From Hydrogenophaga sp. (lineage in GTDB: Bacteria > Pseudomonadota > Gammaproteobacteria > Burkholderiales > Burkholderiaceae_C), in the NCBI RefSeq assembly GCF_011390835.1, contig NZ_JAABRQ010000018.1:20255-84254 (forward strand): a stretch of 64,000 nt of DNA. The letters run 5' to 3'. The notes below the pieces were generated by a model. That model searched no databases. It was given only the letters and a program-made list of their open reading frames with translations, and was not told where the DNA came from. A program made the position numbers and the translations under genes. Of this stretch, positions 1,136 to 48,064 are shown piece after piece (the first letter of the stretch is position 1; every line of letters starts with the position of its first letter).

Positions 1136-1158
1136 ACACCGGCACCGCAGAGGAAATC

Positions 1159-1176
1159 TGTATTAGAACTTGGACA
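1159..1176. promoter_or_regulatory. PpsR/CrtJ box upstream of bchI
   Basis: TGT-ATTAGAACTTGG-ACA is an exact TGT-N12-ACA match. Confidence 0.7.
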
Positions 1177-1245
1177 CTCAGTACCGTAACCAATCCGGCT
1201 TTCGCGCCGCCTGTGCCATACTGAATTCCCAACCTTTACTACCTT

Positions 1246-2274
1246 ATGGCACAGGCATTCCCCTTTTCGGCCATCGTCGGCCAGGAAGAAATGAAGACGG
1301 CGATCCTGATCGCTGCGATCGACCCCAGCATCGGCGGCATCCTGGTGCTGGGCGACCGAGGCACCGGCAAATCGACCGCGGTGCGCGCACTTGCCGCGCT
1401 GTTGCCCAAGATGAAAGCAGTGCAAGGCTGCCGCTACGGCTGCGACCCGACCGAGGCCGCTGGTGGCTGCACCGAATGTGCCACCCTGCGGCCTGCGGGC
1501 AGCTCGCCCAAGACCCACCTCATTCCGGTGCCCGTGGTCGATCTGCCACTGGGCGCAACCGAAGACCGCGTGGTCGGCGCGCTCGATCTGGAGCGCGCCC
1601 TGTCGCAAGGTGTGAAGGCGTTTGAGCCCGGCCTGCTGGCCCAGGCGCATCGCGGTTTTCTCTACATCGACGAAGTCAACTTGCTGGAGGACCACCTGGT
1701 CGACCTGCTGATCGACGTGGCCGCCTCGGGCGAAAACGTGGTCGAGCGCGAAGGCCTGTCGGTGCGGCACCCGGCGCGCTTTGTGCTGGTAGGCAGCGGC
1801 AATCCGGAAGAAGGCGAGCTGCGGCCACAGTTGCTGGACCGGTTTGGCCTGTCGGTCGAGGTGAAAACGCCCGACCAGCTGGTCGATCGGGTGGAAGTCG
1901 TCAAGCGGCGCGACGCCTTTGAACAGGACCGCAGTGCCTTCATCGCGCAGTGGCAGCCCGACGACGAACGCATCCGCAAACAGATCGTCGCGGCCCGCAA
2001 GCGCCTGCCGGCGGTGAGCGTGAGCGACGCCGTGCGCGAGCGCATTTCCAGCCTCTGCGCCGCACTAGGCACCGACGGCTTGCGCGGTGACCTTACCCTC
2101 TTGCGCGCGGCCCGAGCGCTGGCCGCGCTGGACGGCGACAAGGCGGTGGCGGACCATCACATCCGCCGCATCGCCGCGCCCGCCCTGCGCCACCGACTGC
2201 GCCGCAATCCGCTGGACAACGCCGGCTCGTCCACCCGCGTGGAGCGGGCGGTGGCCGAACTGCTGCCGGCATGA
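1246..2274 (+). CDS. bchI: Magnesium chelatase ATPase subunit I
   Basis: FPFSAIVGQEEMK, Walker A GDRGTGKST, LYIDEVNLL, GSGNPEEGELRPQLLDRFG. Confidence 0.97.
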   Translation: MAQAFPFSAIVGQEEMKTAILIAAIDPSIGGILVLGDRGTGKSTAVRALAALLPKMKAVQGCRYGCDPTEAAGGCTECATLRPAGSSPKTHLIPVPVVDLPLGATEDRVVGALDLERALSQGVKAFEPGLLAQAHRGFLYIDEVNLLEDHLVDLLIDVAASGENVVEREGLSVRHPARFVLVGSGNPEEGELRPQLLDRFGLSVEVKTPDQLVDRVEVVKRRDAFEQDRSAFIAQWQPDDERIRKQIVAARKRLPAVSVSDAVRERISSLCAALGTDGLRGDLTLLRAARALAALDGDKAVADHHIRRIAAPALRHRLRRNPLDNAGSSTRVERAVAELLPA

Positions 2275-4070
2275 ACATCAGCCAGCGTCCCGCGCTGGCA
2301 CCCGACGCGGTGCTCGCCGCGGCGCTGCTCGCGGTGGACCCGGTGGGTCTGGGCGGCGTGGCGCTTCGGGCGCCTGCCAGCGAGCTGCGCGGCGACTGGC
2401 TGGCCTTGGCCAAATCCCTGTTGCCGGCCTCGGCACCCTGGCTGCGTGTGCCGCACCACGCCAGCGACAGCGCCTTGCTGGGCGGTCTCGATCTGGCCGC
2501 CACCTTGAGCGCGGGTCGGCCGGTGGCCCTGCCAGGGCTGCTGGCGCGGGCCGATGGTGGTGTGCTGCTGCTGGCCATGGCCGAGCGCTGTGGCCCCGGC
2601 GTGGCTGCCTACCTGAGCGCGGCGCTCGACCAACACGAGGTGCATCTGCAACGCGATGGCCTGTCGCATGCCGCGCCGGCTCGGCTCGCGCTGATCGCAC
2701 TGGACGAAGGACAGGCCGACGACGAACACCTGCCTGCCACCTTGCTGGACCGGCTTGCATTCTGGCTGTCGCTCGAGCCAGCGGGCGCGGAGCAGGATGC
2801 GCCGGTGTTCGACCTCGCCGACATCACCGCCGCCCGCGCCGCCTGGCCCAGCGTCGCTGTGCCCGACGCGCTGGTGCAGGCCTTGTGCGCCGCCGCCATG
2901 GCCTGGGGCGTGCCATCGATGCGCGCGCCGGTGATGGCGGTGCGCGCGACCCGTGCCCTGGCGGCGCTGGCGGGCCTGAGCGAAGCCGACGAAGACCACG
3001 CCACCCTGGCCGCGCGCCTGGTGCTGGCACCACGGGCCACCCAGTTGCCGTCTTCAGAGGAAGCACCCGAGCAAGCTGAGGAGCCACCGGAGGCTGAAAG
3101 CCCACCCGACCAGGATCCACCGACCGACGATCCGCCCGCGGCTGAAGACGACGCCCAAAGGCCACCAGCGCCAGATCCCCAGGCACTGGAGGACAAGCTC
3201 ATCGAAGCCATGCAGGCCGCGCTGCCGCCCGGCCTGCTCGCCGCGCTGCAGCTGGGCCAGCAGCGCCAGGCCCAAGCCAAAACCGCCGGCACCGCAGGTG
3301 CTCAGCAAAAGCACGCGCACCGCGGTCGCCCGGTGGGTACGCGGCGCGGCGAACCGCGCCACGGGGCCCGGCTGCATGTGCTCGACACGCTGCGCGCCGC
3401 AGCGCCATGGCAGCGCTTGCGGCGCCGGGCAGACACGCCTGCTAAGCGCATTGAGGTGCGGCGCGAGGACTTTCATGTGCGGCGGTTCCGGCAGCACCGC
3501 CCGACCACCACCGTGTTCGTGGTCGATGCCTCGGGCTCGGCTGCGTTGCACCGGCTGGCCGAGGCCAAGGGCGCGGTGGAGCTCTTGCTGGCCGAGTGTT
3601 ATGTGCGGCGCGACCGGGTCGCGGTGCTGGCGTTTCGCGGCGCGGGCGTGGAACTGCTGCTGCCGCCCACACGCTCGCTGGCACGCGCCAAACGCTCTCT
3701 GGCCGCCCTGCCCGGCGGCGGCGGCACACCGCTGGCGGCTGGCATCCACGCCGCGCGCGAACTGGCCACGCAGCTGGCGCGGCAAGGCGACTCGCCGCTG
3801 GTCGTGTTCCTCACCGACGGCCGCGCCAACATCGCCGCCGACGGCACGCCCGGTCGCACCCAGGCCGCCGCCGATGCGCTGCAGGCCGCCGCCGAGTTCA
3901 GGACGCAGGCTCTCAGCGCCCTGCTGATCGACACCTCACCACAACCCAGCGAAGCCGCGCGCCTGCTGTCGGTCGAGATGGCCGCGTCTTACATACCCCT
4001 GCCACACGCCGGCGCCCAGGGTCTGAGCCAGGTGGTGTCGCTGGCCGCCTCGCCAGCGGCGGTGCGGTGA
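2271..4070 (+). CDS. bchD: Magnesium chelatase subunit D
   Basis: Degenerate AAA N-terminus, acidic/Pro-rich linker, vWA MIDAS VVDASGS; ATGA overlap with bchI. Confidence 0.95.
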   Translation: MNISQRPALAPDAVLAAALLAVDPVGLGGVALRAPASELRGDWLALAKSLLPASAPWLRVPHHASDSALLGGLDLAATLSAGRPVALPGLLARADGGVLLLAMAERCGPGVAAYLSAALDQHEVHLQRDGLSHAAPARLALIALDEGQADDEHLPATLLDRLAFWLSLEPAGAEQDAPVFDLADITAARAAWPSVAVPDALVQALCAAAMAWGVPSMRAPVMAVRATRALAALAGLSEADEDHATLAARLVLAPRATQLPSSEEAPEQAEEPPEAESPPDQDPPTDDPPAAEDDAQRPPAPDPQALEDKLIEAMQAALPPGLLAALQLGQQRQAQAKTAGTAGAQQKHAHRGRPVGTRRGEPRHGARLHVLDTLRAAAPWQRLRRRADTPAKRIEVRREDFHVRRFRQHRPTTTVFVVDASGSAALHRLAEAKGAVELLLAECYVRRDRVAVLAFRGAGVELLLPPTRSLARAKRSLAALPGGGGTPLAAGIHAARELATQLARQGDSPLVVFLTDGRANIAADGTPGRTQAAADALQAAAEFRTQALSALLIDTSPQPSEAARLLSVEMAASYIPLPHAGAQGLSQVVSLAASPAAVR

Positions 4071-4072
4071 GC

Positions 4073-4978
4073 ATGTCCGGCGCGCTGGACTGGGAGCGCG
4101 ACGGCCCTGAATGGCCGCACGCACAGCACAGCCGCTTTGTGCATGCGGCTGGTCTGCGTTGGCATGTGCAGCACTTCCCGGGACCGGCGCCTGATGCGCC
4201 CTGCCTGCTGCTGCTGCACGGCACCGGCGCCTCCACCCACTCCTGGCGGGACCTGGCACCACTGCTGGCCAAGCGCTATCAGGTCATCGCGCCCGATCTG
4301 CCCGGCCATGCCTTCACCGGCCTGCCACCCGGCGGGGTGGGTTCGCCCCAACTCACCTTGCCCGGCATGGCCGCTGCGCTAAAGGGTTTGATGCAAGCCC
4401 TCGACCAGCGCCCAGCCCGCGTGGTGGGTCATTCAGCTGGCGCGGCGATCGCGGTGCGCATGTGCCTGGACGGCCTCATCAACCCGCAGCGCCTGAGCGG
4501 GCTGAACGCGGCCCTGCTGCCGCTGGGCGGGCTCGCCGGCGCGGTGTTTTCACCGGCCGCCAAGCTGATGGCGTCTGTGCCGCTCGTGCCGCGCCTGTTT
4601 GCCTGGCGCGCGGGCGAGCCGGCCGTGCTGCAGCGCCTGCTGCAGAGCACCGGCTCCACGCTCGACCCCACCGGCACCGCGCTCTACCGGCGCCTGGTCA
4701 GTAGCCCGGCACACGCCACCGGCGCACTGGGGATGATGGCCAACTGGGATCTCCCGACCCTGGCCGCCGACCTACCGCGACTGGCGGTGCCACTCGATTT
4801 GCTGGTGGGTTCGCGCGACCGCACCGTGCCGCCGGAGCAGGCGCAGCGCGTCTTGGCCCGCCTGAGCGATGCAGCGCGCGGACGCATCACCGTGCTCGAC
4901 GGGCTGGGTCACCTGGCGCACGAGGAAGACCCGGCGCGCGTGGCCGAATACCTGTTGGACGCGGAGCAGGTGGCATGA
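4073..4978 (+). CDS. bchO: Alpha/beta hydrolase BchO
   Basis: LLLHGTGASTHSWR, GHSAG nucleophile elbow, GHLAHEE; follows bchID. Confidence 0.9.
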   Translation: MSGALDWERDGPEWPHAQHSRFVHAAGLRWHVQHFPGPAPDAPCLLLLHGTGASTHSWRDLAPLLAKRYQVIAPDLPGHAFTGLPPGGVGSPQLTLPGMAAALKGLMQALDQRPARVVGHSAGAAIAVRMCLDGLINPQRLSGLNAALLPLGGLAGAVFSPAAKLMASVPLVPRLFAWRAGEPAVLQRLLQSTGSTLDPTGTALYRRLVSSPAHATGALGMMANWDLPTLAADLPRLAVPLDLLVGSRDRTVPPEQAQRVLARLSDAARGRITVLDGLGHLAHEEDPARVAEYLLDAEQVA

Positions 4979-6249
4979 CCCCCGCTCGCGAGCCCTGGAC
5001 ACCCGCGCTACCCGACGCGCCACCGCGCCATTTCTGCACCGACTGCGGTCTCTCGCGCACCCAGGATCCCAAGCGCTGCGGCCAGGCTTGTCAGTTCATC
5101 GCACCCGACTACCCGCGCCTGGAGCAGCAGGTGCATGGCCGCGCGCGGCGCCTGCCTGGGGCCGATGGCGCGGCGGACGACGAGCTGTTTTTCGGACCAC
5201 ACCAGCAGATGCTGCAGGCGCGGCTGAAAACGCCGCTGGTGGGTGCGCAGTGGACGGGCATCACCACCCGCATAGCCGAGCGGCTGCTGGCCCGCGGTGA
5301 AGTGGACGCGGTGATTGCGATGGCACCGCACCCCGACGACCCCTGGCGCCCGCTGCCCGTGGTGGTGACGCGCGCCGAGGACATGGCCCGCTGTCGCGGC
5401 ATGCGCATGGGTTACGCACCGCTGGTGGCGCTGGTGGAGCCCGCGCTGGCGCAAGGCCACAAGCGGCTGGCGGTGATCGGCATTCCCTGCCAGATCTACG
5501 CGCTGCGCGCAATCCAGCCACAGCTGGAGCGCGAACACGGCCTGAAAGAACTGCTGGTGATCGGCACGCCCTGCTCCGATAACACCACCACCGAGCGATT
5601 CCATGAGTTCCTGACCCTGGTCTCTCCCAAACCACAAGACGTGACCTACCTGGAGTTCCGCGCCGACTACCACGTGGAGATCCGCATGAAGGGTGGCGAG
5701 GTGCGCACCATCCCGTTCCTGCAGCTGCCGCTGTCTACCCTGCCGCCCGACTTTTTCCCCATGACCTGCCGCACCTGCGTGGACTACACCAATGCGCTGT
5801 CCGACATTACGGTGGGTTACATGGGCGGGCGCGGCGAGCAGTGGCTGCTGGTGCGCAACTCGCGCGGCCAGGCGCTGCTGGACAGTCTAAGTGACGAGGT
5901 CATCACCCACGCGCCGAGCTCGGCCGGCCAGCGCGCGGGCGCCGTGAAAGGCTTTCTGAAGAACGTGGAACGTGCCGCGGGCGGTCTGCCACTGCGGCGC
6001 ATGCCCGACTGGCTGCGCCCCATCGTGGGCTGGCTGATGCCGCGAGTCGGGCCGCGCGGCCTGGAATTCGCACGCGCGCGGGTCGAGATGAAGGCGGTGG
6101 AAACGGTGGTGCATCTGGAACGGGAATCACCGGCACGCCTGAAATCCATGGTGCCCGAGCACGTGGTGCACCTGGTGCGGCCCTATGGGTTGGCCGCACG
6201 CGCCCAGGCGGGGCAGGTTGCCGCGCCTGCGCCCCCAGACCCGACTTAA
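4975..6249 (+). CDS. bciB: FrhB-family Fe-S flavoprotein, probable ferredoxin-dependent 8-vinyl (divinyl chlorophyllide) reductase BciB
   Basis: CTDCG..CGQAC, GAQWTGI, IPCQ, GTPCSDN, CRTCVDYTNALSDITVGYMG motifs; ATGA overlap with bchO. Confidence 0.85.
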   Translation: MTPAREPWTPALPDAPPRHFCTDCGLSRTQDPKRCGQACQFIAPDYPRLEQQVHGRARRLPGADGAADDELFFGPHQQMLQARLKTPLVGAQWTGITTRIAERLLARGEVDAVIAMAPHPDDPWRPLPVVVTRAEDMARCRGMRMGYAPLVALVEPALAQGHKRLAVIGIPCQIYALRAIQPQLEREHGLKELLVIGTPCSDNTTTERFHEFLTLVSPKPQDVTYLEFRADYHVEIRMKGGEVRTIPFLQLPLSTLPPDFFPMTCRTCVDYTNALSDITVGYMGGRGEQWLLVRNSRGQALLDSLSDEVITHAPSSAGQRAGAVKGFLKNVERAAGGLPLRRMPDWLRPIVGWLMPRVGPRGLEFARARVEMKAVETVVHLERESPARLKSMVPEHVVHLVRPYGLAARAQAGQVAAPAPPDPT

Positions 6250-6303: not shown

Positions 6304-6347
6304 TGTCATGTTAGATTGACACATGTAGATGTCACACGTTGATGACA
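6304..6347. promoter_or_regulatory. Tandem PpsR boxes 8 bp apart at the crtE promoter
   Basis: TGTCATGTTAGATTGACA (6304-6321) and TGTCACACGTTGATGACA (6330-6347) are both exact; TTGACA(6290-95)-N16-TAGATT(6312-17) promoter candidate. Confidence 0.88.
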
Positions 6348-6370
6348 TCACGTCTGCAGGCGAGAAGTCC

Positions 6371-7288
6371 ATGCCCATGATGTCACGCATCCAGCAAGCG
6401 CTAGACGCCCAGCTTCAGCGCGCTGCCGGCGCCAGCGCACCGCCCCGATTGATTGCCGCCATGCGACACGCCGTGTTTCCCGGCGGTGCACGCATCAGGC
6501 CCCAGCTCTGTCTGGCTGTCGCGCAAGCCTGCGGTGAAGACGCCCCCGCGCTGACCGACGCCGCGGCCGGCGCCATCGAGATGCTGCACTGCGCCTCTCT
6601 GGTGCACGACGACATGCCCTGCTTCGACGACGCGGCGACACGCCGCGGTCAGGCAACGGTGCACACTGTGTTCGGCGAGCCGCTGGCCCTGCTCACGGGC
6701 GACGCCCTCATCATCCTGGCCTACCAGACCCTGGCGCGGGCCGGCGCCGCACAGCCGGCGCGGCTCGCGGGCCTGCTGCAAACCATAAGCGATGGCGTGG
6801 GCGCACCCGACGGCATCGTGGCCGGCCAAGCCTGGGAATGTGAATCGAGAGTCTCGCTCAGCCAGTACCAGCGCGCCAAGACCGGCGCGCTGTTTGTGGC
6901 ATCCACCTGCGCTGGCGCGCAGGCGGCCGGTGCCGACCCCATGCCGTGGCGCGGTCTGGGCGAGTGCCTGGGCGAGGCCTACCAGGTCGCCGACGACATC
7001 CGCGATGTGCTGCTGCATTCGGACCAGTTGGGAAAACCCGCCGGACAGGACGCTCAGCACGGCCGGCCCAGCGCCGCGCACGACCTCGGCTTGGCCGACG
7101 CCATTCACCTGTTTCGCCGCCTGATGCAGAACGCCATCGACTCGGTGCCCGACTGCCCCAGCCGTACCGCCATGCGCCAGATCGTGCTGCGCGAATCCGA
7201 GCGGCTGATGCCCCAAAGCACCTGCGAGCGCGCCGTGCTCGAAGGCCGCATCGCCAGCGCCCCGGCGCCCCTGCAAATCGCCGCCTGA
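6371..7288 (+). CDS. crtE: Geranylgeranyl diphosphate synthase
   Basis: GGARIRP, HCASLVHDDMPCFDDA (FARM), YQVADDIRD (SARM); start could be 6329, 6371 or 6377. Confidence 0.93.
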   Translation: MPMMSRIQQALDAQLQRAAGASAPPRLIAAMRHAVFPGGARIRPQLCLAVAQACGEDAPALTDAAAGAIEMLHCASLVHDDMPCFDDAATRRGQATVHTVFGEPLALLTGDALIILAYQTLARAGAAQPARLAGLLQTISDGVGAPDGIVAGQAWECESRVSLSQYQRAKTGALFVASTCAGAQAAGADPMPWRGLGECLGEAYQVADDIRDVLLHSDQLGKPAGQDAQHGRPSAAHDLGLADAIHLFRRLMQNAIDSVPDCPSRTAMRQIVLRESERLMPQSTCERAVLEGRIASAPAPLQIAA

Positions 7289-7299
7289 GCACCCCGCCC

Positions 7300-8520
7300 A
7301 TGTCCACTCTGCACACCCCCGAGCCTCTGCCCCGCCTGCTCAGCGCACCATCCTGGCGCGAGCGATGGGCTTCGCAAGTGGACGATTGGATGACCCGGCC
7401 CGCCCTGCACCGTTGGGCGCAGCACAACCCGCTGACACGTTGGCTGGTGCGCCGCCGCTCGGCCCAGCTGTTTGAACTGATGGCCGGCTTCGTGCATTCG
7501 CAGGTCTTGCTAGCCTGCGTCCGGTTGCGCTTGCTGGAAACCGTGCGGGAGCAGCCTCGCAGCCTCGACGAGCTGGCCCGGCTCACCCAGCTGCCCGCCG
7601 CGGGACTGCAGCGCCTGCTGGCGTCCGCCGTTTCCATGCGGCTGCTCGACCAGCGCAGCGGCAGTCGCTACGGCCTTGGCGCCCTTGGCGCGCCGGTGGC
7701 CACCCACCCTGGCATCCGCGACATGGTCGAGCACAACGCCACGCTCTATGAAGACCTACGCGACCCGCTGGCCTTGCTGCGCGACCCCGATGGCGCGCAC
7801 ATGCACCGTTACTGGCCTTACACCGATCATCAGGTCGGTGAGCAGGCAGGGCAACCCCAGCCGCCCGCGCCCGAGGCACAGTTCGCGCGCTACTCGTCGC
7901 TGATGGCGACCTCGCAACGCTTCGTGATCGACGAGCTGCTGGCTGCCTACCCGTTTGCCCAGCACCAGCGGGTGCTCGATGTGGGCGGCGGCATGGGCGG
8001 CTGGGTCAGCGCGCTGGCAGAGCGCCACCCCCAGCTGTCTCTGCAGCTGTTCGACCTGCCGCCGGTGGCCGCCCTGGCCCAGGAGCAAATCATCCGCCGA
8101 GGGCTGGCGGACCGCATTACCACCCACGGCGGCAGCTTCACGACCGACGCGCTCCCGGGCGGCGCCGATCTGGCCACGCTGGTGCGTGTGGCCCACGACC
8201 ACGACGACCGCACCGTGCTCACCGTGTTGCGCGCCATTCACAAAGCCTTGCCGCTGGGAGGGGCCCTGTTGCTTGCCGAGCCTATGGCGAAGACCGATGG
8301 CCAGCCGTCCAGCAGCGACCCCTATTACCACTTCTACCTGATGGCCATGGGCTCCGGCCGGCTGCGCACTCCCCAGGCGCTGAGCGCGCTGATGAGCGAG
8401 GCCGGCTTCACCCATATCGAGCTGGTGCCCAACCCCATGCCGCTGCACGCGCAGTTGCTGGTGGGTCGCAAATCTAGGGGTTTACCCGCTGACTTGGGTA
8501 AAAGCGTCAATTTAGATTGA
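7300..8520 (+). CDS. crtF: Hydroxyneurosporene/demethylspheroidene O-methyltransferase
   Basis: LFELMAGFVHSQVL, SAM-binding LDVGGGMG, VAHDHDD; crtE-crtF-bchC synteny. Confidence 0.93.
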   Translation: MSTLHTPEPLPRLLSAPSWRERWASQVDDWMTRPALHRWAQHNPLTRWLVRRRSAQLFELMAGFVHSQVLLACVRLRLLETVREQPRSLDELARLTQLPAAGLQRLLASAVSMRLLDQRSGSRYGLGALGAPVATHPGIRDMVEHNATLYEDLRDPLALLRDPDGAHMHRYWPYTDHQVGEQAGQPQPPAPEAQFARYSSLMATSQRFVIDELLAAYPFAQHQRVLDVGGGMGGWVSALAERHPQLSLQLFDLPPVAALAQEQIIRRGLADRITTHGGSFTTDALPGGADLATLVRVAHDHDDRTVLTVLRAIHKALPLGGALLLAEPMAKTDGQPSSSDPYYHFYLMAMGSGRLRTPQALSALMSEAGFTHIELVPNPMPLHAQLLVGRKSRGLPADLGKSVNLD

Positions 8521-38941: not shown

Positions 38942-40797
<1,856 letters not shown>

Positions 40798-40908: not shown

Positions 40909-41119
40909 TTTCTGTACGGGCAAATTGAATTGCTTTGACGGGTTGGGTTGACACAGGTAAAACCTCTTCTGGGTAGTCAGCACATCTGGGCAAGACTTCA
41001 GCGCTGCTCTCCAGGAATTTCGTTACGCAAACCATCTGATGGCGTAAGAAAGCACCGGCAATGACCGTGGCCCATGCGTGAATCGGCACAAGCGCACAAG
41101 CGCAAAGGAGACACGGAAC

Positions 41120-42058
41120 ATGGGGTCTATCTCGAGGCATTCCTCACCTCAACCCGAAGACACACCACTCGCTGCCACCAACGAACGGGCCGGCGATGGC
41201 CCCGCCTCAACCGGTCCGCCCGTCATCGGCGACCTGCTTCGATCCGATAGCGAAGAAGCCTCCAACGACGACGGCTTGCGTGCCGTGTTGCTGGCCAAAG
41301 CGGTCGAGTACGAAATCATTCCGCGCCTGATGCTGGCTCACCGCGTGCCTCAGGAATGCGCCGAACATCCGCTCACCACCAACCAGCGTGTCACGCCCGA
41401 AGACGTGGCCCTGTTCGCAGAGCTGGTGCTGCACGAAGAAGACAACGTGGTGCGCGACTGCGTGATCGCGCTGCGCGACCGGGGTGTTCCGGTCGAGGCG
41501 ATCTTCCTCGACCTGCTGGCTCCCGTGGCCCGACACCTGGGCGAAATGTGGGAGCGTGACCTCTGCACCTTTACCGAGGTGACGGTGGGTCTGGGCCGGC
41601 TGCAGAAGGTGCTGCGTGAAAACAGCGCGTCCTTTGGACAGTTCAATGGCTCGCACCACAGCGCAGAAGGCCGGCGCATCCTGCTCATGCCTTGCCCGGG
41701 CGAGCAGCACACATTTGGCCTGTCGCTTGTGGCGGAGTTTTTCCACCGTGCTGGCTGGGACGTGGTGACCAGCTTTCTTGCCACCGATGCCGCGGCCATC
41801 ATGGTCAAGAAAGACTGGTACGACGTGGTCGGCTTTTCGCTCGGTGCTGTGGGCGGCGCACCCAAACTGTCAGCCGCTATCAACCTCGTGCGGGAGGTCA
41901 GCGTCAATCCCCAGATTTCTATCATTTGCGGCGGTCCCGCCTTCCTGCTGCAGCCGGAAGTAGGGGCCACGGTGCAGGCCGACGCCATCATCACCGATGG
42001 TCCCCGGGCACCGGTACAGGCGGAAAAACTGGTGTCAGACAGTCATTTACGTATATAA
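41120..42058 (+). CDS. aerR: Cobalamin-binding antirepressor AerR/PpaA
   Basis: YEIIPRL, FLDLLAPVARHLGEMW, PGEQHTFGL (ExHxxG B12 motif); upstream of ppsR; AAGGAG SD. Confidence 0.92.
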   Translation: MGSISRHSSPQPEDTPLAATNERAGDGPASTGPPVIGDLLRSDSEEASNDDGLRAVLLAKAVEYEIIPRLMLAHRVPQECAEHPLTTNQRVTPEDVALFAELVLHEEDNVVRDCVIALRDRGVPVEAIFLDLLAPVARHLGEMWERDLCTFTEVTVGLGRLQKVLRENSASFGQFNGSHHSAEGRRILLMPCPGEQHTFGLSLVAEFFHRAGWDVVTSFLATDAAAIMVKKDWYDVVGFSLGAVGGAPKLSAAINLVREVSVNPQISIICGGPAFLLQPEVGATVQADAIITDGPRAPVQAEKLVSDSHLRI

Positions 42059-42118
42059 GCATAGAAAGTTTGTTCTGTTGACACTCACCAAACCCCGCCC
42101 TTACCCAGAAAGCACTCC

Positions 42119-43582
42119 ATGACGCAGGCTCTGCCCGTCTCGGCCCAGCGGCGTTTCAATATGCCAGGGCAATTCCTTGGCCAGTTGAGCGCCGATGTCG
42201 CTGCTGAATTGATCACCGCATCGGCCGATGTGGTGCTGATCCTGGACGCGCAAGGCGTGATCCGGGACATTTCCCTTGCCAATGACGAACTCGTCACCGC
42301 CGGTTGCGGAGCATGGGTAGGCCAGCGCTGGACCGACACCGTGAACGACGAGAGCCACAGCAAGATCGAGGCCCTGCTCAAGGGCCGCGGTGAGCCGACC
42401 AGCGATGGCGTGCGGTGGCGTCATGTGAACCACATCCTCAGAGATGGCGGCGAACTGCCACTGTCTTACGCCCTGGTGCCGGTCAGCCGCGCCGACGATG
42501 ATGGCCAAGCCAGCCATTCGGTGGCTTTTGGCCGTGACTTGCGTCCTCAAGTGGCGCTGCAGCAGCGCCTGGTCAATGCTCAGCAGTCCATGGAGCGCGA
42601 CTACTGGCGGCTTCGTCAGGTCGAGACCCGCTACCGCCTGCTGTTCCAGATGGCCTCCGAGCCCGTGCTCATTTTGGAGGGCTCGATCGACAAGCTGGAA
42701 GAAGCCAACCCGGCGGCTTACGAGCTGTTCGGCGAGCGCGCTCAAGTATCGGGCTGGACGCTGAATCAGAGCCTGGAACCTGCCAGCCAGCAGGTCGTTC
42801 GCGATCTGCTGGAAAGGCTGCGGGCCAGCGGCAGGGCCGAGCCCGTCATGGTTCGCTTGGTGGATGGGGTGGAGGACTTGGTCCTGTCGGCTTCGCAATT
42901 CCGGCAGGAGAACTCCCAGCATTTTCTGCTGCGCTTTTCCAAGCCCCAGGACGCCACTCCCACGAGCGCCTCCCGCGCACGCCAGCTGCTGCTGCAGGTG
43001 ATGGAGGGCGCGCCCGATGCGCTCGTGGTCACAGACCCCGAAGGCCGCGTGCTCAGCGCCAACCGCGCGTTTCTCGATCTGGGCCAACTCGGCAGCGAAG
43101 ACCAGGCGCGTGGCGAACTGCTCGACAAGTGGCTGGGGCGCACCGGGGTGGATTTCCGGGTGCTGCTGTCCAACCTGCGTCAGCATGGTGCGGTGCGCCT
43201 GTTCGCCACGCAGCTGCGCGGCGAGTATGGCTCGACGGCGGAGGTGGAAATCTCCGCGGTCGCGGTGAACACGGGCAGCCAGCGCTGCCTGGGCTTCACC
43301 ATCCGCGACATGGGGCGCCGGCTGGTCAACGAAGGCCGTTTGGCCAAGGAACTGCCGCGCTCGGCCAGCCAGATGACCGAGCTGGTGGGCCGCCTGCCAC
43401 TCAAGGATATCGTGCGCGAGACCACCGACTTGATCGAGCAGCTGTGCATCGAGGCCGCCCTTGAACTCACCGGCGACAACCGCGCCTCGGCAGCTGAAAT
43501 GCTGGGCCTTTCGCGTCAGAGCCTCTATATCAAGCTGCGCCGATTCGGCATCCTTGAGGGCACGAGCGAAGACGTGCACTGA
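42119..43582 (+). CDS. ppsR: Photosystem repressor PpsR/CrtJ
   Basis: Three PAS domains, QSMERDYWRLRQ.ETRYR linker, IEQLCIEAAL, AAEMLGLSRQSLYIKLRRFG HTH. Confidence 0.96.
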   Translation: MTQALPVSAQRRFNMPGQFLGQLSADVAAELITASADVVLILDAQGVIRDISLANDELVTAGCGAWVGQRWTDTVNDESHSKIEALLKGRGEPTSDGVRWRHVNHILRDGGELPLSYALVPVSRADDDGQASHSVAFGRDLRPQVALQQRLVNAQQSMERDYWRLRQVETRYRLLFQMASEPVLILEGSIDKLEEANPAAYELFGERAQVSGWTLNQSLEPASQQVVRDLLERLRASGRAEPVMVRLVDGVEDLVLSASQFRQENSQHFLLRFSKPQDATPTSASRARQLLLQVMEGAPDALVVTDPEGRVLSANRAFLDLGQLGSEDQARGELLDKWLGRTGVDFRVLLSNLRQHGAVRLFATQLRGEYGSTAEVEISAVAVNTGSQRCLGFTIRDMGRRLVNEGRLAKELPRSASQMTELVGRLPLKDIVRETTDLIEQLCIEAALELTGDNRASAAEMLGLSRQSLYIKLRRFGILEGTSEDVH

Positions 43583-43605
43583 GTCCGCCCGCTCGCTCAA
43601 ACGCC

Positions 43606-43635
43606 TTCCGCCAGCTTGTCTGGCGGAACCTTTTT
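43606..43635 (+). terminator. Rho-independent terminator after ppsR
   Basis: TTCCGCCAG-CTTGT-CTGGCGGAA followed by CCTTTTT. Confidence 0.75.
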
Positions 43636-43698
43636 GGGCTGGTCCCACGACGAGGTCTTGAGCATGCGCGCGCAAGCCCTTGTTGCCTCGCTGGTGAC

Positions 43699-43739
43699 TG
43701 TCATATTTAATTGACACTCCAATGTGTAAGGTGTACAAC
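43699..43739 (+). promoter_or_regulatory. bchG promoter with a PpsR box
   Basis: TGTCATATTTAATTGACA (43699-43716) exact; TTGACA(43711-16)-N17-TACAAC(43734-39). Confidence 0.8.
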
Positions 43740-43746
43740 CTTGCGC

Positions 43747-44631
43747 ATGGCCCGCCCCGCCCTGTCAGCCGTCACCGAGCTGTTCAAACCCATCACCTGG
43801 TTCCCACCCATGTGGGCCTTTGCCTGCGGCGTCGTGGCCTCGGGCGTCTCGATGGACGGGCGCTGGCTGCTGGCCATCGTGGGCATTGCACTGGCTGGCC
43901 CCTTGGTGTGTGCCACAAGCCAGGCTGTGAACGACTGGTTTGACCGCCATGTCGACGCCATCAACGAACCACAACGCCCCATCCCTTCTGGCCGTATGCC
44001 AGGTCGCTGGGGTCTTTATCTCGCCATTCTCTGGACCGCCATTTCGCTGGCCGTTGCTACGGTGCTGGGGCCCTGGGGTTTTGGCGCGGCCGCGCTGGGT
44101 CTGCTGCTGGCCTGGGCCTACAGTGCACCGCCCGTGCGGCTCAAAGAAAACGGCTGGTGGGGCAACGCCGCCTGCGGCATTAGCTACGAAGGCATTGCCT
44201 GGGTGACCGGCGCGGCGGTCATGGCCGGTGGGGCCATGCCCGGCGGTGAATCGCTGGTGCTGGCCGCGCTGTACAGCGCAGGCACCCACGGCATCATGAC
44301 ACTCAACGATTTCAAGGCGGTTGCCGGTGACCGCCAGATGGGCGTGCGCTCGCTGCCGGTGCAACTCGGCGTGGACCGCGCCGCGCGCGTGGCTTGTTGG
44401 TTCATGGCATTGCCACAACTGGTGGTGATCGCACTGCTGCTGTCATGGGGCCAGCCATGGCACGCGCTGGCAGTGGCGGCCCTGCTCGTGGCGCAAGGCG
44501 CGATGATGCTGCGCTTCCTGGCCGACCCGACGGCGCGCGCTCTTTGGTACAGCGGCTTTGGCGTGCCCCTGTTCGTGGCCGGCATGATGGTGAGCGCCTT
44601 CGCGCTGCGCGGCCTGGGGGCTGGCGCATGA
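43747..44631 (+). CDS. bchG: Bacteriochlorophyll a synthase
   Basis: ELFKPITWFPPMWAF.CG, SQAVNDWFDRHVDAINEP.RPIPSGR, MTLNDFKA..GD. Confidence 0.97.
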   Translation: MARPALSAVTELFKPITWFPPMWAFACGVVASGVSMDGRWLLAIVGIALAGPLVCATSQAVNDWFDRHVDAINEPQRPIPSGRMPGRWGLYLAILWTAISLAVATVLGPWGFGAAALGLLLAWAYSAPPVRLKENGWWGNAACGISYEGIAWVTGAAVMAGGAMPGGESLVLAALYSAGTHGIMTLNDFKAVAGDRQMGVRSLPVQLGVDRAARVACWFMALPQLVVIALLLSWGQPWHALAVAALLVAQGAMMLRFLADPTARALWYSGFGVPLFVAGMMVSAFALRGLGAGA

Positions 44632-45983
44632 GGCCCTTCGGCTGGGGCAGCGTGGCCCGCTTGGGCGTGGCTCAAGCCTGCCTGGGTGCCATCGTGGTGC
44701 TGACCACCTCCACCCTGAACCGGGTGATGGTGGTTGAGCTCGCCCTGCCCGCCTTGCTGCCCGGGCTGCTGGTTGCGCTGCACTACGCGGTGCAGATCGC
44801 ACGCCCGCGCATGGGTCACGGCTCCGACGTGGGCGGGCGGCGCACGCCTTGGATCATCGGCGGCATGGCGGTGCTGGCGCTGGGAGGCGTGCTGTCGGCC
44901 CTGGCCACGGTCTGGATGGCCAGTCAGCCGGGCGCTGGCCTGGCGCTCGCGGTGCTGGGATTTTCACTCGTGGGTCTTGGCGTGAGCGCCAGCGGCACCT
45001 CGCTGCTGGTGCTTCTGGCCAAGCGCGTGCCCGAAGGCCGGCGCGGCGGTGCGGCCACGATGGTCTGGATGATGATGATCGCTGGCTTTGCACTCACCGC
45101 CGGGCTGGCCGGCCACTTCCTCGACCCCTATTCGCCACAGCGCCTGCTGCTGGTGACGGCCACCGTGTCGGTCGCGGCTTGGATCATTTCCGTGTTGGCG
45201 GTGCGTGGTCTGGAAGGTCACGAGACGACCGACCCCGCTGCGCTCGTCAGCAGCGCCGCGCCCAAGCCCCGCTTCCGAGAAGCCCTGGCGCAGGTCTGGG
45301 CCGAACCGGTAGCCCGACGATTCACCATTTTTGTGTTCGTCTCCATGCTGGCCTACAGCGCCCAGGATCTGATCCTGGAGCCATTTGCTGGGGCGGTGCA
45401 TGGATACACACCCGGCGCGTCCACGCAGCTGGCGGGCGTGCAGCACGGCGGCGTGCTGGCCGGCATGCTGCTGGTGGCGCTCGCGGGCGCCATCGCCGCT
45501 CGCTGGTCAGCGCACCCTGTGCTGCGCCACATAGGATCCCTGCGGGCCTGGACGGTGGGGGGCTGCATCGCGTCGGCGCTCGCGCTGCTTGGTCTGATGC
45601 TGGCGGGACTGCAAGGTGCGGGCTGGCCGCTCAAGCTCAACGTGTTTGCGCTGGGCGTGGCGAACGGCGCGTTTTCCATCGGCGCCATCGGTTCGATGAT
45701 GCGACTGGCACACCAGGGCGGCCCTGCGCGCGCCGGCATCCGCATGGGCCTGTGGGGTGCGGCGCAGGCGATGGCCTTTGGTATTGGTGGGCTCATCGGA
45801 ACCGGCGCCAGCGATCTGGCGCACCACCTGCTCGCTCTGCCGGGCAGCGCCTACGCCAGCGTGTTTGCGCTCGAAGGCGCCGTCTTCCTGCTGTCGGCCG
45901 TACTAGCCTGGCGCATCTCGACCACTACCTCCCCGCATGCAACGCGTACCCGCCTGCATTTCCCCACCCCGGCCAGCCCCTGA
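44628..45983 (+). CDS. BCD-family MFS transporter (PucC-like, bch2/orf428 type)
   Basis: STLNRVMVVEL, RPRMGHGSD.GGRRTPWI, YSAQDLILEPF; between bchG and bchP. Confidence 0.9.
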   Translation: MRPFGWGSVARLGVAQACLGAIVVLTTSTLNRVMVVELALPALLPGLLVALHYAVQIARPRMGHGSDVGGRRTPWIIGGMAVLALGGVLSALATVWMASQPGAGLALAVLGFSLVGLGVSASGTSLLVLLAKRVPEGRRGGAATMVWMMMIAGFALTAGLAGHFLDPYSPQRLLLVTATVSVAAWIISVLAVRGLEGHETTDPAALVSSAAPKPRFREALAQVWAEPVARRFTIFVFVSMLAYSAQDLILEPFAGAVHGYTPGASTQLAGVQHGGVLAGMLLVALAGAIAARWSAHPVLRHIGSLRAWTVGGCIASALALLGLMLAGLQGAGWPLKLNVFALGVANGAFSIGAIGSMMRLAHQGGPARAGIRMGLWGAAQAMAFGIGGLIGTGASDLAHHLLALPGSAYASVFALEGAVFLLSAVLAWRISTTTSPHATRTRLHFPTPASP

Positions 45984-46011
45984 GCGGCGGCCTTTACACA
46001 AGGCAATTGTC

Positions 46012-47226
46012 ATGAACACCCAAGAAACCTTCGATGTGGTGGTGATCGGTGGCGGCCCGTCGGGGGCTACCGCGGCGCACGAACTCGCGAAACAAGGCCA
46101 CTCGGTGCTGCTGCTCGACCGCGGCGGTCGCATCAAGCCCTGCGGTGGCGCCATCCCGCCCCGCCTGATCCAGGACTTCGAGATTCCCGACGCGCTGCTG
46201 GTTGCCAAGGCGCGCTGCGCGCGCATGATCGCGCCCTCATCCAAACACGTCGACATCCCCATTGACAACGGTTTTGTAGGCATGGTGAACCGCGAAGCTT
46301 TTGACGAGTGGCTTCGCGCGCGTGCCGAGCACGCGGGCGCGGTGCGCCGCACGGGCAATTTTGATCGCCTCAGCCGCGACAGCGATGGCGTGAGCGTGGT
46401 GCACTACCACGTACGCGAGGGGAAGCGTGGCAGCGAGAGCCTGCCAGCCCAGGTGCGGGCGCGCAGCATCATCGGCGCCGACGGCGCTCGCTCGGGTGTC
46501 GCGCGGCAGGGTTGCGTGCCAGGCGCTGAACGCACGCGCTACGTCTTTGCGTACCACGAGATCGTGCGCGCACCCGAAAGCGCACAGCGCCCAGCTGATT
46601 ACGACGACGCGCGCTGCGATGTGTACTACCAAGGGCGTTTTTCACCCGATTTCTACGGCTGGGTTTTCCCGCACGGCGACACGCTGAGCGTGGGCACCGG
46701 CAGCGCCGACAAGGGCTTCTCGCTCAAAAGCTCGGTGCAACGCATGCGCGAGACCAGCGGACTGGCGGAAGCGGAAACACTGCGGCGCGAAGGCGCGCCC
46801 ATACCCATGAAGCCGCTGCCGCGCTGGGACAACGGGCGCGACCTGGTGCTGGCCGGTGACGCCGCTGGCGTGGTCGCACCGGCGTCTGGCGAAGGCATCT
46901 ACTACGCAATGGTGGGCGGACAGCTCGCCGCAGAAGCTGTGCACGCGCTGCTGCTGACTGGCGATGTGAAATCGCTCCAGCTGGCCCGCAAGCGCTTCAT
47001 GAAGCTGCACGGCCAGGTGTTCTGGGTGCTGGGCATCCTGCAGTGGTTCTGGTACAGCAGCGAAAAGCGGCGCGAGCGTTTCGTGAAGATCTGCGAGGAC
47101 CGCGACGTGCAGCAACTGACATTCGATTCGTACATGAACAAGCGCCTTACCCGCAAGAAACCGATGGCGCATGTGCGCATCTTCTTCAAGGATCTGAGCC
47201 ACCTGCTCGGGCTGGCACGGGTCTAG
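46012..47226 (+). CDS. bchP: Geranylgeranyl reductase
   Basis: VIGGGPSGATAA, IKPCGGAIPP, GDAAG.VAPASGEGIYYA. Confidence 0.96.
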   Translation: MNTQETFDVVVIGGGPSGATAAHELAKQGHSVLLLDRGGRIKPCGGAIPPRLIQDFEIPDALLVAKARCARMIAPSSKHVDIPIDNGFVGMVNREAFDEWLRARAEHAGAVRRTGNFDRLSRDSDGVSVVHYHVREGKRGSESLPAQVRARSIIGADGARSGVARQGCVPGAERTRYVFAYHEIVRAPESAQRPADYDDARCDVYYQGRFSPDFYGWVFPHGDTLSVGTGSADKGFSLKSSVQRMRETSGLAEAETLRREGAPIPMKPLPRWDNGRDLVLAGDAAGVVAPASGEGIYYAMVGGQLAAEAVHALLLTGDVKSLQLARKRFMKLHGQVFWVLGILQWFWYSSEKRRERFVKICEDRDVQQLTFDSYMNKRLTRKKPMAHVRIFFKDLSHLLGLARV

Positions 47227-47231
47227 TCGTC

Positions 47232-47537
47232 ATGACGACCATGCAAGAACTCTGGAGCACCGGCCGCTGGGTTGATCTGGCCCTGGCCATCGTGCTGGCC
47301 GAGGTACTGATCATGGCCTGGCTGGTACAGGTGACCGGGCGCCACACCTGGTTTCGCGCCTACCTGCTCAATCTGGGCTCCGGTCTGTGCCTGATCTTCG
47401 CCCTGCGCAGCAGCTTGGCCGATGGCGGCTGGGCCATGCCTGCCCTGTGGCTGGCGCTCGCAGGCGCACTGCACAGTGCCGACCTCTGGTTGAGGTGGCA
47501 CCATCAGGCCGACCGGGGACCGGTTCGACCTGACTGA
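47232..47537 (+). CDS. Small hydrophobic membrane protein (101 aa) downstream of bchP
   Basis: About three hydrophobic segments, 5 bp after bchP stop, Leu/Ala/Trp-rich. Confidence 0.65.
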   Translation: MTTMQELWSTGRWVDLALAIVLAEVLIMAWLVQVTGRHTWFRAYLLNLGSGLCLIFALRSSLADGGWAMPALWLALAGALHSADLWLRWHHQADRGPVRPD

Positions 47538-47542
47538 AACGC

Positions 47543-47857
47543 TCAGGCCTTTTTCGCGTAGGCAGAGCACCAGCCCTTGGCAGCCACGTGCTTGCCGGGG
47601 AAGATGCCACATGGGCCCGATGCTTCGCCAGCCTTGCCGGTGTAGAGCGCGCAGTTGCTGCACTGCTGGGTGGCGGCGTGCTTGGGGTACTTCTTGGCAT
47701 CCACCTTGGTGGTGTCGGCGGCGTAGCCAAGCGACATGGCCTGGGCGTCTTTTTCGCCGACCATAGGCGCGGCTTGCGCATGGGCGCTGGCCGCCGCGAG
47801 AGCGGCGCCGCCAGCGGCGACCTGAAGCATGAAGACTCGGCGAGTGGAAACAGACAT
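47543..47857 (-). CDS. High-potential iron-sulfur protein (HiPIP) with Tat signal
   Basis: STRRVFM Tat motif, A..LGY, CSNC...GPC.IF.GK.V...GWCSAY; GAGG SD. Confidence 0.93.
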   Translation of the reverse strand: MSVSTRRVFMLQVAAGGAALAAASAHAQAAPMVGEKDAQAMSLGYAADTTKVDAKKYPKHAATQQCSNCALYTGKAGEASGPCGIFPGKHVAAKGWCSAYAKKA

Positions 47858-48064
47858 GGGTAACCTCGTGAAGATGTTTGCAAAAATGCTCATGGATTGT
47901 CGGCCCGCCGGACTTAAGAAAGCCTGACGGCGCACAACGCCTGACCGGCGCGGTAGCCTATTGCCGAACTCGGGTATTGGGCCCCTGGGTCAAGGCGCCT
48001 CAAGACCGCAGGCCCGTGCCGGGTTGTGGCGGCTGTTTACACTCAGCGCAGTTCGCCGCCACCC

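Follow-up and report, generated by a model that had tools for sequence, protein, structure and literature searches.

A photosynthesis gene cluster in a variable slot between hpnC and hpnD marks probable recurrent loss or exchange of phototrophy in Hydrogenophaga

How did a complete photosynthesis gene cluster (PGC) come to lie between two genes of squalene synthesis, and does its position there record the gain or the loss of phototrophy? The question is raised by a 64-kb stretch of Hydrogenophaga DNA (64,000 nucleotides; hereafter the window), in which a 46-kb PGC (1246–47226), a small membrane ORF and a gene for a high-potential iron-sulfur protein (HiPIP) separate hpnC from hpnD. The three-step squalene pathway of HpnD, HpnC and HpnE has been characterised in Zymomonas and Rhodopseudomonas, and the window resembles the hpnCDE genes of hopanoid producers in holding all three equivalogs in the order hpnC-hpnD-hpnE and on one strand. 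An earlier note on this DNA had read the genes as intact, with hpnC ending at 1135, hpnD starting at 48065 on the same strand and the PGC filling the gap, and the NCBIfam equivalog matches, which exceed the curated cut-offs and cover the full length of each model, agree (Table 1). The hpnC ORF spans 134–1135, with the ATG at 236 as the likely start, and the match to the HpnE model begins near 49110, at residue 75 of a long ORF. The Asp-rich motifs of HpnC (DDLAD and DIRVD) and both of those of HpnD can be read in the sequence. Unlike in hopanoid producers, however, the genes do not form a contiguous operon of one transcription unit, as 46.9 kb and an opposite-strand HiPIP gene directly upstream of hpnD split hpnC from its partners. 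No shc/hpnF gene lies within the 64-kb window.

By gene content, the inserted locus is a complete proteobacterial PGC. Genes for the reaction centre (pufL, pufM, puhA) and light harvesting (pufB, pufA) match their families above cut-off (TIGR01157, TIGR01115, TIGR01150 and, for both pufB and pufA, PF00556), with NF040706 also matched in the pufLMC block. The full predicted pathway to bacteriochlorophyll a is present as equivalogs (bchHID, bchM, cyclase, bchLNB, bchXYZ, bchF, bchC, bchG and bchP); the cyclase is the oxygen-dependent AcsF, and no bchE was found in the 64-kb window. These genes are accompanied by the carotenoid set crtA, crtB, crtC, crtD, crtE, crtF and crtI and by two regulators, ppsR (TIGR02040, 504 bits) and a B12-binding AerR-like gene. 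Four non-classical ORFs lie inside the PGC (21323–23734), among which the FGE-sulfatase-like ORF overlaps the DCC1-like ORF, so that one of these two may be a miscall.

Table 1. Features of the window, with coordinates, strand and family matches.
Feature	Position	Strand	Match or remark
hpnC (hydroxysqualene/squalene synthase HpnC; left flank)	236–1135	+	TIGR03464, 307.5 bits (cut-off 250)
hpnC-bchI spacer, belongs to PGC	1136–1245	+	
bchI, bchD, bchO (about 4109–4978), BciB-like FrhB-family gene (4975–6249)	1246–6249	+	TIGR02030, NF009943, TIGR03056; PF04422/PF04432
crtE, crtF (about 7300–8520), bchC, bchX (about 9521–10528), bchY, bchZ	6329–13685	+	
pufB, 80-aa membrane ORF (13994–14236), pufA (14249–14449), pufL, pufM, pufC (about 16401–17483)	13828–17483	+	
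ispH paralogue, crtA (about 18550–19290), crtD, crtC (about 20846–21682)	17504–21682	+	
Non-classical PGC ORF without assigned function	21323–21895	-	
PNPOx-like ORF inside PGC	21950–22516	-	
DCC1-like ORF inside PGC	22506–23114	-	
FGE-sulfatase-like ORF inside PGC	22970–23734	+	
crtB, crtI, puhE, acsF, puhC, puhB, puhA, lhaA (PUCC family), bchM, bchL, bchH, bchB, bchN, bchF	23747–40797	-	
B12-binding AerR/PpaA-like gene, ppsR, bchG, pucC-like gene, bchP (right end of classical PGC)	41078–47226	+	
101-aa membrane ORF, part of indel	47232–47537	+	no Pfam or NCBIfam match
HiPIP, divergent from hpnD, conserved flank	47543–47857	-	PF01355, 85.7 bits
hpnD (presqualene diphosphate synthase)	48065 (likely ATG)–48931	+	TIGR03465, 370 bits (cut-off 279)
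hpnE (hydroxysqualene dehydroxylase)	49110–50465	+	TIGR03467, 292.6 bits (cut-off 283)
Right flank for synteny and trees: Lon-like protease, SH3-domain protein, GST (-), HAD phosphatase (-), ferrochelatase	50529–56145	mixed	

Gene order, the check proposed in the earlier note, was compared across 90 related loci and agrees with what that note predicted. An RND-MFP pair lies upstream of hpnC in all relatives, and hpnC and hpnD are adjacent, 13–179 bp apart, in 22 loci that keep RND-MFP upstream and GST-HAD-ferrochelatase downstream. All but one of these 22 belong to other Comamonadaceae groups (labelled Polaromonas, Rhodoferax, Curvibacter, Malikia, Macromonas and Ramlibacter), the remaining one being a MAG (L009) placed near the clade of the window. 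The Lon-like protease of the right flank is itself present in some relatives and not in others. The bchP-HiPIP-hpnD junction of the window, in the order bchF-ppsR-bchG-pucC-bchP-(small ORF)-HiPIP-hpnD, recurs in 16 of the 48 species representatives of Hydrogenophaga; among these 16, four short contigs reveal the last genes of the order only. The run from the AerR/PpaA-like gene to bchP stands in the order of the window upstream of hpnD in 12 related loci. At the left junction, bchI follows hpnC in five other assemblies, directly in L081, L083/L084, L085 and L087 and as hpnC-kinase-Crp-bchI in the type species H. flava (L089). Occupancy of the hpnC–hpnD junction by a PGC on both sides was found in Hydrogenophaga only.

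Empty sites define the extent of the indel. In L086 (hpnC, HiPIP, hpnD) both flanks are identical and 296 unrelated bases replace 46.4 kb, while the sequence of H. pseudoflava (L018) follows that of H. flava with 92.2% identity for 7.9 kb, as far as the end of the Crp gene, where it runs straight into HiPIP-hpnD with the PGC missing. Homology with the empty sites ends on the hpnC side at about 1136, and the indel runs from 1137 to 47541. The earlier note had given the gap as 1136–48064, filled by PGC and HiPIP together; the HiPIP gene, kept in both empty sites, and the HiPIP-hpnD spacer belong to the conserved flank. The 101-aa membrane ORF goes with the PGC, its tblastn homologues occurring only in PGC-plus loci and missing from the empty sites. 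In many Hydrogenophaga that are not phototrophic, other cassettes (an MFP-RND pump, a kinase-Crp pair or HiPIP) likewise keep hpnC and hpnD 0.3–9.4 kb apart. The junction thus acts as a variable slot in general, with the operon interrupted even where there is no PGC. Such unlinked genes in non-phototrophic relatives had been named in advance as evidence against the site as a marker of phototrophy; they do occur within Hydrogenophaga, and the outgroup genera keep the genes adjacent. Relatives differ in what they carry there: nothing, HiPIP alone, a kinase-Crp pair, an MFP-RND pump, larger ABC-transporter sets or the PGC. In 13 PGC-minus loci, hpnC does not appear within the 8.8–10 kb of upstream sequence that can be seen. 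The MFP-RND occupant is also present in Tepidicella and basal lineages, which leaves the ancestral slot content uncertain.

In betaproteobacterial phototrophs such as Rubrivivax gelatinosus and Rhodoferax fermentans, HiPIP donates electrons to the tetrahaem cytochrome of the reaction centre. The gene here encodes a Tat-signal HiPIP and adjoins a PufC-encoding PGC, and it is plausible by this analogy that the protein passes electrons to the PufC-bound reaction centre. Its gene is found at the site in 16 of 16 PGC-plus loci and in 8 of 31 PGC-minus Hydrogenophaga loci (Fisher p = 6.5e-7), an association that fits HiPIP-only sites being scars of loss. The gene is also retained at the site in eight PGC-minus lineages, which indicates that it is not strictly PGC-dependent.

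The presence of the PGC at this site in about one-third of Hydrogenophaga species and its clean absence from close sisters indicate that phototrophy has repeatedly been lost, or exchanged, here within the genus. Trees of the PGC right arm and of the flank have all four major clades in common (bootstrap 89–100) and are congruent, in line with the old event proposed in the earlier note, and pairwise identities of PGC and flank are correlated (r = 0.95); the 'species tree' in this comparison consists of only about 7 kb of linked flank, and if flanks travel with the PGC in recombination, congruence could arise without vertical descent. PGC-plus and PGC-minus lineages are interleaved with high bootstrap support: the empty-site L086 is nested in (window,(L011,(L086, L006))) (bootstrap 100), L019 without a PGC pairs with PGC-bearing L022 in (L002,(L022, L019)) (100/96), L010 without pairs with L005 with (100), L044 without is sister to PGC-bearing L016 and L020 (100), and L032, L036 and L047, all without, fall inside a PGC clade (100). 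The reading that we favour, and consider probable, is a single old insertion of the PGC into the variable slot, with five or more losses since. The ancestral family layout would have been a contiguous hpnC, hpnD and hpnE downstream of a divergent RND-MFP pump, and the gap between hpnC and hpnD would then have come to hold variable content. Early in the radiation of Hydrogenophaga, the complete PGC may have been placed there beside the HiPIP gene, leaving either no recognisable mobility signature or one that has since eroded, and would then have diverged together with its flanks. Independent deletions in several lineages would have been either exact (leaving hpnC-HiPIP-hpnD or hpnC-kinase-Crp-HiPIP-hpnD) or have removed HiPIP too. 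The earlier note had left open whether the PGC was gained at, relocated into or cleanly lost from this junction; the insertion site stands, and for the sampled lineages we infer from the sequence comparisons a single origin, with loss as the main direction. In the present layout hpnC has its own upstream region, and hpnD and hpnE must presumably be expressed from the 207-bp divergent spacer between HiPIP and hpnD.

A rival reading, which we regard as possible but doubtful, treats the site as a recombination hotspot and the PGC as its presence/absence allele, repeatedly gained and lost through homologous recombination in the hpnC-side and HiPIP/hpnD-side flanks. Chromosomal integration hotspots are variable slots between conserved core genes that are turned over by homologous recombination, and the slot resembles them in its conserved flanks, in its differing or missing cargo in related genomes and in having no mobility genes within it. 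At least four unrelated cassettes occupy it (the MFP-RND pump, the kinase-Crp pair, a sulfate-type ABC transporter with Crp regulators, and an MCP). Every PGC carrier has the same junctions, as flank-guided replacement would give, and the whole cluster can be present in one and missing from the other of two species that share about 92% nucleotide identity. The mosaic L085 switches affinity exactly at the hpnC-bchI boundary, its flank being L086/L087-like and its PGC like those of the window and L081 (94–95% vs 84% protein identity), which places either a recombination event or an assembly chimera at that boundary; L085 comes from an error-prone metagenome assembly, however, and may be chimeric. 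Nor does any of 45 pairs have a PGC identity clearly above that of the right flank (difference at most about 7 points). Identity between L019 and L022 stays at about 92% throughout 11 kb of right flank and shows no tract boundary, L018 and L089 are likewise uniform over the 7.9 kb of left flank, and HpnC of L086 agrees with its right-flank relationships. The cargo also differs from that of known hotspots in being a whole energy-metabolism module, resident long enough to co-diverge with its flanks. A tentative and doubtful extension of this reading is that the slot is exchangeable throughout the genus, with species of Hydrogenophaga passing the whole PGC to and fro, each time in one homologous-recombination event anchored in the hpn/HiPIP flanks. 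If true, no mobile element would be needed to turn phototrophy on or off, and facultative phototrophy would have gone unrecognised in classical 'hydrogen bacteria', the type species H. flava among them.

Selection for the linkage itself, with squalene/hopanoid genes and PGC kept together for co-regulation of isoprenoid flux or of photosynthetic membrane lipids, appears improbable. It would fit the extra isoprenoid genes of the PGC (crtE and the ispH paralogue) and the reading of hpnC towards bchI, between which no terminator is predicted. In relatives, however, the hpn genes flank unrelated cargo or nothing, and phototrophic Polaromonas and Ramlibacter MAGs hold their PGC elsewhere and in another arrangement, with bchIDO beside ccm genes; in a Polaromonas-like MAG it lies about 780 kb from an intact hpnC-hpnD pair. 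The hpnC-bchI spacer also carries a PpsR-type box (TGT-N12-ACA, 1159–1176), whose position after hpnC puts hpnC apparently outside the PGC regulon. A 12-nt inverted repeat in the spacer (1209–1220/1245–1256) pairs with the bchI start codon in a predicted hairpin (−20.7 kcal/mol, z = −5.9). The spacer can be aligned at the nucleotide level among the window, L081, L083, L085, L087 and L089, with the box and left arm conserved, and does not resemble the spacer in the empty-site L086.

Recent horizontal gain of a mobile photosynthesis island by this organism is highly improbable. PGC islands with an integrase beside a tRNA are documented, for example in Erythrobacter sp. AP23 (PMC4919336). Here, however, neither junction has an integrase, transposase or tRNA among the annotated ORFs of the window (its sole tRNA is at 63376–63468), and no repeats of at least 10 nt are common to both. 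The composition of the PGC is also that of its flank, in GC content (66.3% vs 65.9%), codon fractions (r = 0.996) and tetranucleotides (r = 0.98), so neither the mobility genes and repeats nor the deviant composition or codon usage of a mobile genomic island is seen. The absence of integrase, transposase and GC shift had already suggested a possibly old event to the earlier note, and the codon and tetranucleotide profiles bear this out. The same insertion, moreover, is found in at least 16 species representatives and has co-diverged in sequence. The way in which the cluster first entered the site can no longer be reconstructed. An assembly or binning artefact fusing a PGC contig to hpn genes, a concern for a window that derives from a sediment metagenome, can practically be dismissed, as independently assembled contigs from two sediment-metagenome runs (X1 and X2; Logan) span both junctions (X1 record 4 covers 471–1587 and X1 record 6 covers 46695–49500+) and the same junctions occur in isolates (H. 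flava BCTF01000013.1 and Hydrogenophaga sp. XSHU_21) and many unrelated assemblies. Both the mobile-island and the artefact readings are contradicted by this junction, composition, multi-species and independent-contig evidence.

Patchy PGC distributions have been explained by loss and/or transfer in Rhodobacteraceae (PMC6052148), Erythrobacter (PMC4919336) and Bradyrhizobium (PMC10569730), and the present case is a fresh instance of this known phenomenon rather than a new kind of system. As in other purple and aerobic anoxygenic phototrophic Proteobacteria, a single uninterrupted cluster of about 45 kb holds the bch, crt, puf, puh, ppsR and acsF genes, phototrophic and non-phototrophic species are intermingled within the genus, and the flanking genes are adjacent in cluster-less relatives. 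In contrast to Erythrobacter AP23, there is no integrase or tRNA; nor is a plasmid involved. The Hydrogenophaga cluster differs from those of other Proteobacteria in having co-diverged with its flanks, in its site at the hpnC–hpnD junction of the squalene operon, and in its host, a betaproteobacterial genus best known for hydrogen oxidation.

The site between hpnC and hpnD offers a precisely defined, genus-wide marker of phototrophy gain or loss in Hydrogenophaga, as the earlier note had proposed, with at least five changes of state of the photosynthesis gene cluster (PGC) on the tree of the flanking genes and with exact empty sites, that is, loci with conserved flanks but no PGC. NCBIfam and Pfam scans of the window's ORFs agree with the earlier gene calls in placing a complete PGC between the two genes. 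The hpnC, hpnD and hpnE genes, which had been called intact, match their NCBIfam models from end to end, and HpnC and HpnD each show the two Asp-rich motifs.

Genes and sequence elements at the hpnC-hpnD site of the window
Feature	Position	Strand	Content or assignment
HpnC	ORF 134-1135, likely start ATG at 236		TIGR03464, 307.5 bits (cut-off 250)
Empty-site indel	1137-47541		bchI through small ORF
TGT-N12-ACA box	1159-1176		hpnC-bchI spacer
Inverted repeat	1209-1220 / 1245-1256		perfect, 12 nt
PGC, first block		+	bchI-bchD-bchO, FrhB-family (BciB-like) gene, crtE-crtF, bchCXYZ, pufB/pufA/pufL/pufM/pufC, ispH paralogue, crtA-crtD-crtC
Non-classical PGC genes	4975-6249, 17504-18466, 21323-23734		FrhB-family (BciB-like), second-copy-type ispH, PNPOx-like, DCC1-like thiol-disulfide oxidoreductase, FGE-sulfatase-like ORF
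PpsR-type palindromes	6304-6347, 8531-8548, 43699-43716		upstream of crtE (pair), bchC, bchG
80-aa ORF	13994-14236	+	single-helix membrane ORF between pufB and pufA
PGC, middle block		-	crtB-crtI, puhE, acsF, puhC-puhB-puhA, lhaA, bchM-L-H-B-N-F
PGC, last block		+	B12-binding AerR-like gene, ppsR, bchG, pucC-like gene, bchP
101-aa membrane ORF	47232-47537		after bchP; no family match
HiPIP	47543-47857	-	PF01355
HpnD	48065-48931		TIGR03465, 370 bits
HpnE	ORF end 50465, model match from near 49110		TIGR03467, 292.6 bits
Lon-like protease gene	50529-52958		downstream of hpnE

A scan for HpnD in one genome per GTDB species yielded 80 loci, the best matches being 84-91% identical and nearly all labelled Hydrogenophaga; synteny was mapped by tblastn with all window proteins, and the ORFs upstream of hpnD were clustered into families. 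In 22 loci, hpnC lies 13-179 bp from hpnD, and these loci have in common a divergent MFP-RND pair on the upstream side and GST-HAD-ferrochelatase on the downstream side. All but one of these come from other Comamonadaceae groups (21/22, labelled Polaromonas, Rhodoferax, Curvibacter, Malikia, Macromonas and Ramlibacter), the remaining one being a MAG (L009) placed near the window's clade. As in the window, bchN-bchF-aerR-ppsR-bchG-pucC-bchP-(small ORF)-HiPIP, the last being the gene for a high-potential iron-sulfur protein, stands directly upstream of hpnD in 16 of the 48 Hydrogenophaga-clade loci, four of the 16 being short contigs on which only the last genes of this order are visible. Other Hydrogenophaga carry hpnC 0.8-9.4 kb upstream of hpnD, and their gap is filled by an MFP plus AcrB-type RND pump or by a Crp-family regulator with a histidine-kinase fragment, sometimes together with HiPIP. 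In 13 loci lacking the PGC (PGC-minus), no hpnC was visible within 8.8-10 kb upstream of hpnD; sulfate-type ABC transporter, Crp regulator, cation-efflux and DsbA-like genes are found there instead, and HiPIP adjoins hpnD in six of the 13. The earlier interpretation, gain or relocation of the PGC into the hpnC-hpnD junction or its clean loss from there, is supported in a refined form: this junction is a variable slot in general, at which the main direction of change was probably loss. Two PGC-minus Hydrogenophaga loci (L004 and L007) have a composite array upstream of hpnD (MFP-RND pump, sensor-like gene, Crp regulator, PAS-MCP chemoreceptor), which suggests that the slot gains cassettes serially. 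A second indel near that of the PGC is the Lon-like protease gene, variably present in Hydrogenophaga right flanks: it occurs in 11 loci, mostly PGC-minus, and is absent in every PGC-plus locus extending past hpnE.

For the left junction, HpnC homologues were located in their own contigs and the downstream genes read. Four contig sets have hpnC followed directly by bchI-bchD-bchO-BciB-like-crtE-crtF-bchC-bchX, namely L081 (a contig-end locus, HpnC 89% identical to that of the window), L083/L084 (Hydrogenophaga sp. GCA_030373245.1, 86%), L085 (74%) and L087 (73%); the RND-MFP pair stands upstream of hpnC in all of them except L081. With contigs of 66 kb (L081) and 446 kb (L083), these two probably carry the left and the right junction on a single contig. 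The 110-bp hpnC-bchI spacer can be aligned across the window and these four sets, and keeps both a TGT-N12-ACA box and the element CTGTGCCATACTGA. As regards assembly, 93% of sampled words of the junction sequence are present in two sediment-metagenome runs (X1 and X2). Independently built contigs cross from hpnC into bchI (X1 record 4, 471-1587) and span the side of bchP, small ORF, HiPIP, hpnD and hpnE (X1 record 6, 46695-49500+; X2 record 12, 46806-48400). Both junctions were found again in unrelated assemblies, and misassembly is excluded.

The limits of the indel were read from two empty sites. Locus L086 (HpnC 72-74% identical; ten genes upstream and eight downstream are the same) has the order hpnC, HiPIP on the minus strand, hpnD-hpnE, and its homology to the window ends at 1136 and restarts at 47542. 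The 296 bases in between resemble neither the window's hpnC-bchI spacer nor its small membrane ORF, and have no match in the window junctions. The second empty site is that of H. pseudoflava (L018), the sister species of H. flava. The type species H. flava, identified by a BchI search and not among the 48 Hydrogenophaga-clade loci, has the PGC at the site (L089, GCA_001571145.1), in the layout hpnC, kinase (minus; a histidine-kinase fragment), Crp (plus), bchI-bchD-bchO onwards (BCTF01000013.1, 5221-17026). Between the two species, a 7.9-kb stretch that ends with the Crp gene is 92.2% identical; in H. pseudoflava, the HiPIP stop codon follows after ~25 bp, and then hpnD, so that exactly this PGC is absent. 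Together, these empty sites define the indel as bchI through the small ORF; the interval from hpnC to hpnD proposed earlier does contain the PGC, but HiPIP belongs to the flank. Remnants of PGC genes were sought in the PGC-minus loci by tblastn with all window PGC proteins, and none were found.

Vertical descent of the PGC with losses is the account we favour as probable. Neighbour-joining trees were built from query-anchored protein alignments for the right flank (HpnD, HpnE, GST, HAD, ferrochelatase) and for the PGC right arm (BchN, BchF, AerR-like, PpsR, BchG, PucC-like, BchP), the 'species tree' here being linked flank sequence only. Four clades are common to both trees (bootstrap 89-100%), and pairwise identities of PGC and flank correlate (r = 0.95). 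Well-supported nodes of the flank tree, with near and far flank genes alike, mix PGC-plus with PGC-minus loci: (WIN,(L011,(L086 empty, L006))), where WIN is the window, at bootstrap 100; (L002,(L022, L019 without PGC)) at 100/96; (L010, H. palleronii, without PGC, L005 with PGC) at 100; (L044 without PGC,(L016, L020 with PGC)) at 100; and L032/L036/L047, without PGC and nested in a PGC clade, at 100. With congruent trees, junctions that are identical and empty sites that are exact, losses are the economical reading. HiPIP is present at the site in 16/16 PGC-plus versus 8/31 PGC-minus loci (p = 6.5e-7), and HiPIP-only sites fit as scars of PGC loss. The L019 locus had been considered a recombinant, its HpnC deviating by +3 sd in the direction of the kinase-Crp clade; this was set aside, since the H. 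flava layout of hpnC, kinase-Crp and PGC explains its state more simply, as a deletion of the PGC plus HiPIP.

Exchange of PGC alleles by recombination in the flanks appears rather unlikely, given the clades shared by the two trees and a PGC identity that exceeds flank identity by at most about 7 points in any pair; moreover, no tract boundaries were seen between L019 and L022 (~92% over 11 kb) or between L018 and L089. What speaks for exchange is a switch of affinity at hpnC|bchI in the mosaic locus L085 (ENA ERZ25039527 contig_11010, 1-20897), which is L083-like over 1-3.2 kb, L086/L087-like over 3.2-10.9 kb (aminotransferase to hpnC) and WIN/L081-like in its PGC from 11.2 kb (94-95% protein identity, versus only 84-85% to L087). 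Between its BciB-like gene and crtE, this locus also carries 1.6 kb of additional sequence, and it has numerous frameshifts; the switch is either a true recombination breakpoint or the product of chimeric joining in an assembly prone to errors.

The search for signatures of mobility found none, in line with the earlier observation of neither mobility genes nor a GC shift. No integrase, transposase or nearby tRNA was found at the PGC borders, and no repeat of ≥10 nt is common to both junctions. The PGC resembles its flank in GC (66.3% versus 65.9%), and the comparison of codon and tetranucleotide usage proposed earlier gave no signal (within-amino-acid codon fractions, r = 0.996; tetranucleotide profile, r = 0.98). 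Beyond the genus, the nearest named BchI sequences are those of a Ramlibacter MAG (81%) and a Polaromonas-like MAG (79%), in which bchIDO abuts ccm genes and the upstream neighbours are unrelated; the latter has an uninterrupted hpnC-hpnD (L064) ~780 kb from its PGC on the same 1.25-Mb contig. Because these PGCs are located elsewhere, the hpnC|hpnD location is specific to Hydrogenophaga. Patchy PGC distribution with flanks adjacent in relatives has been documented for Erythrobacter AP23 (PMC4919336), whose PGC differs in that an integrase adjoins a tRNA, and for Rhodobacteraceae (PMC6052148). The Hydrogenophaga site is a new, well-resolved instance of this known phenomenon and reveals no new mechanism or system type.

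Hydrogenophaga are described as hydrogen-oxidising chemolithotrophs. The PGC is present in about a third of the species representatives, plus the type species, which may point to unrecognised phototrophs: bacteriochlorophyll synthesis is predicted for culture-collection strains and is directly testable. Hydrogenophaga pufM has been recorded in freshwater amplicon studies of aerobic anoxygenic phototrophs (PMC11229431), and a literature search for a Hydrogenophaga PGC, the hpn/PGC junction or a PGC in H. flava returned amplicon-level mentions only; the PGC of this classical 'hydrogen bacterium' appears unreported in the literature searched. Natural sister pairs differing by the whole PGC (H. 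flava and H. pseudoflava, L022 and L019, L011 and L086) are suited to testing the contribution of phototrophy and the clean loss of 46 kb.

Several smaller features of the cluster were also recorded. The DCC1-like and FGE-sulfatase-like ORFs overlap on opposite strands, so one call may be spurious. The pufB and pufA genes, usually adjacent, are parted by the 80-aa ORF, which has no Pfam match and whose C-terminal part (GHLVGLHWQDWLPG) resembles the light-harvesting beta-chain motif. TGT-N12-ACA is not enriched window-wide (13 versus 8.7 expected), and evidence for a PpsR-type box is limited to positional conservation upstream of bchI; the AT-rich palindromes at crtE, bchC and bchG nevertheless sit in expected promoter regions. 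Through the inverted repeat, a non-coding element ahead of bchI pairs with the start codon of this gene (RNA fold -20.7 kcal/mol, z = -5.9), which makes the structure a candidate translational hairpin for bchI; the left arm of the repeat, CTGTGCCATACTGA, is kept in 6/6 PGC-plus lineages examined, with a loop varying from ~10 to 32 nt.
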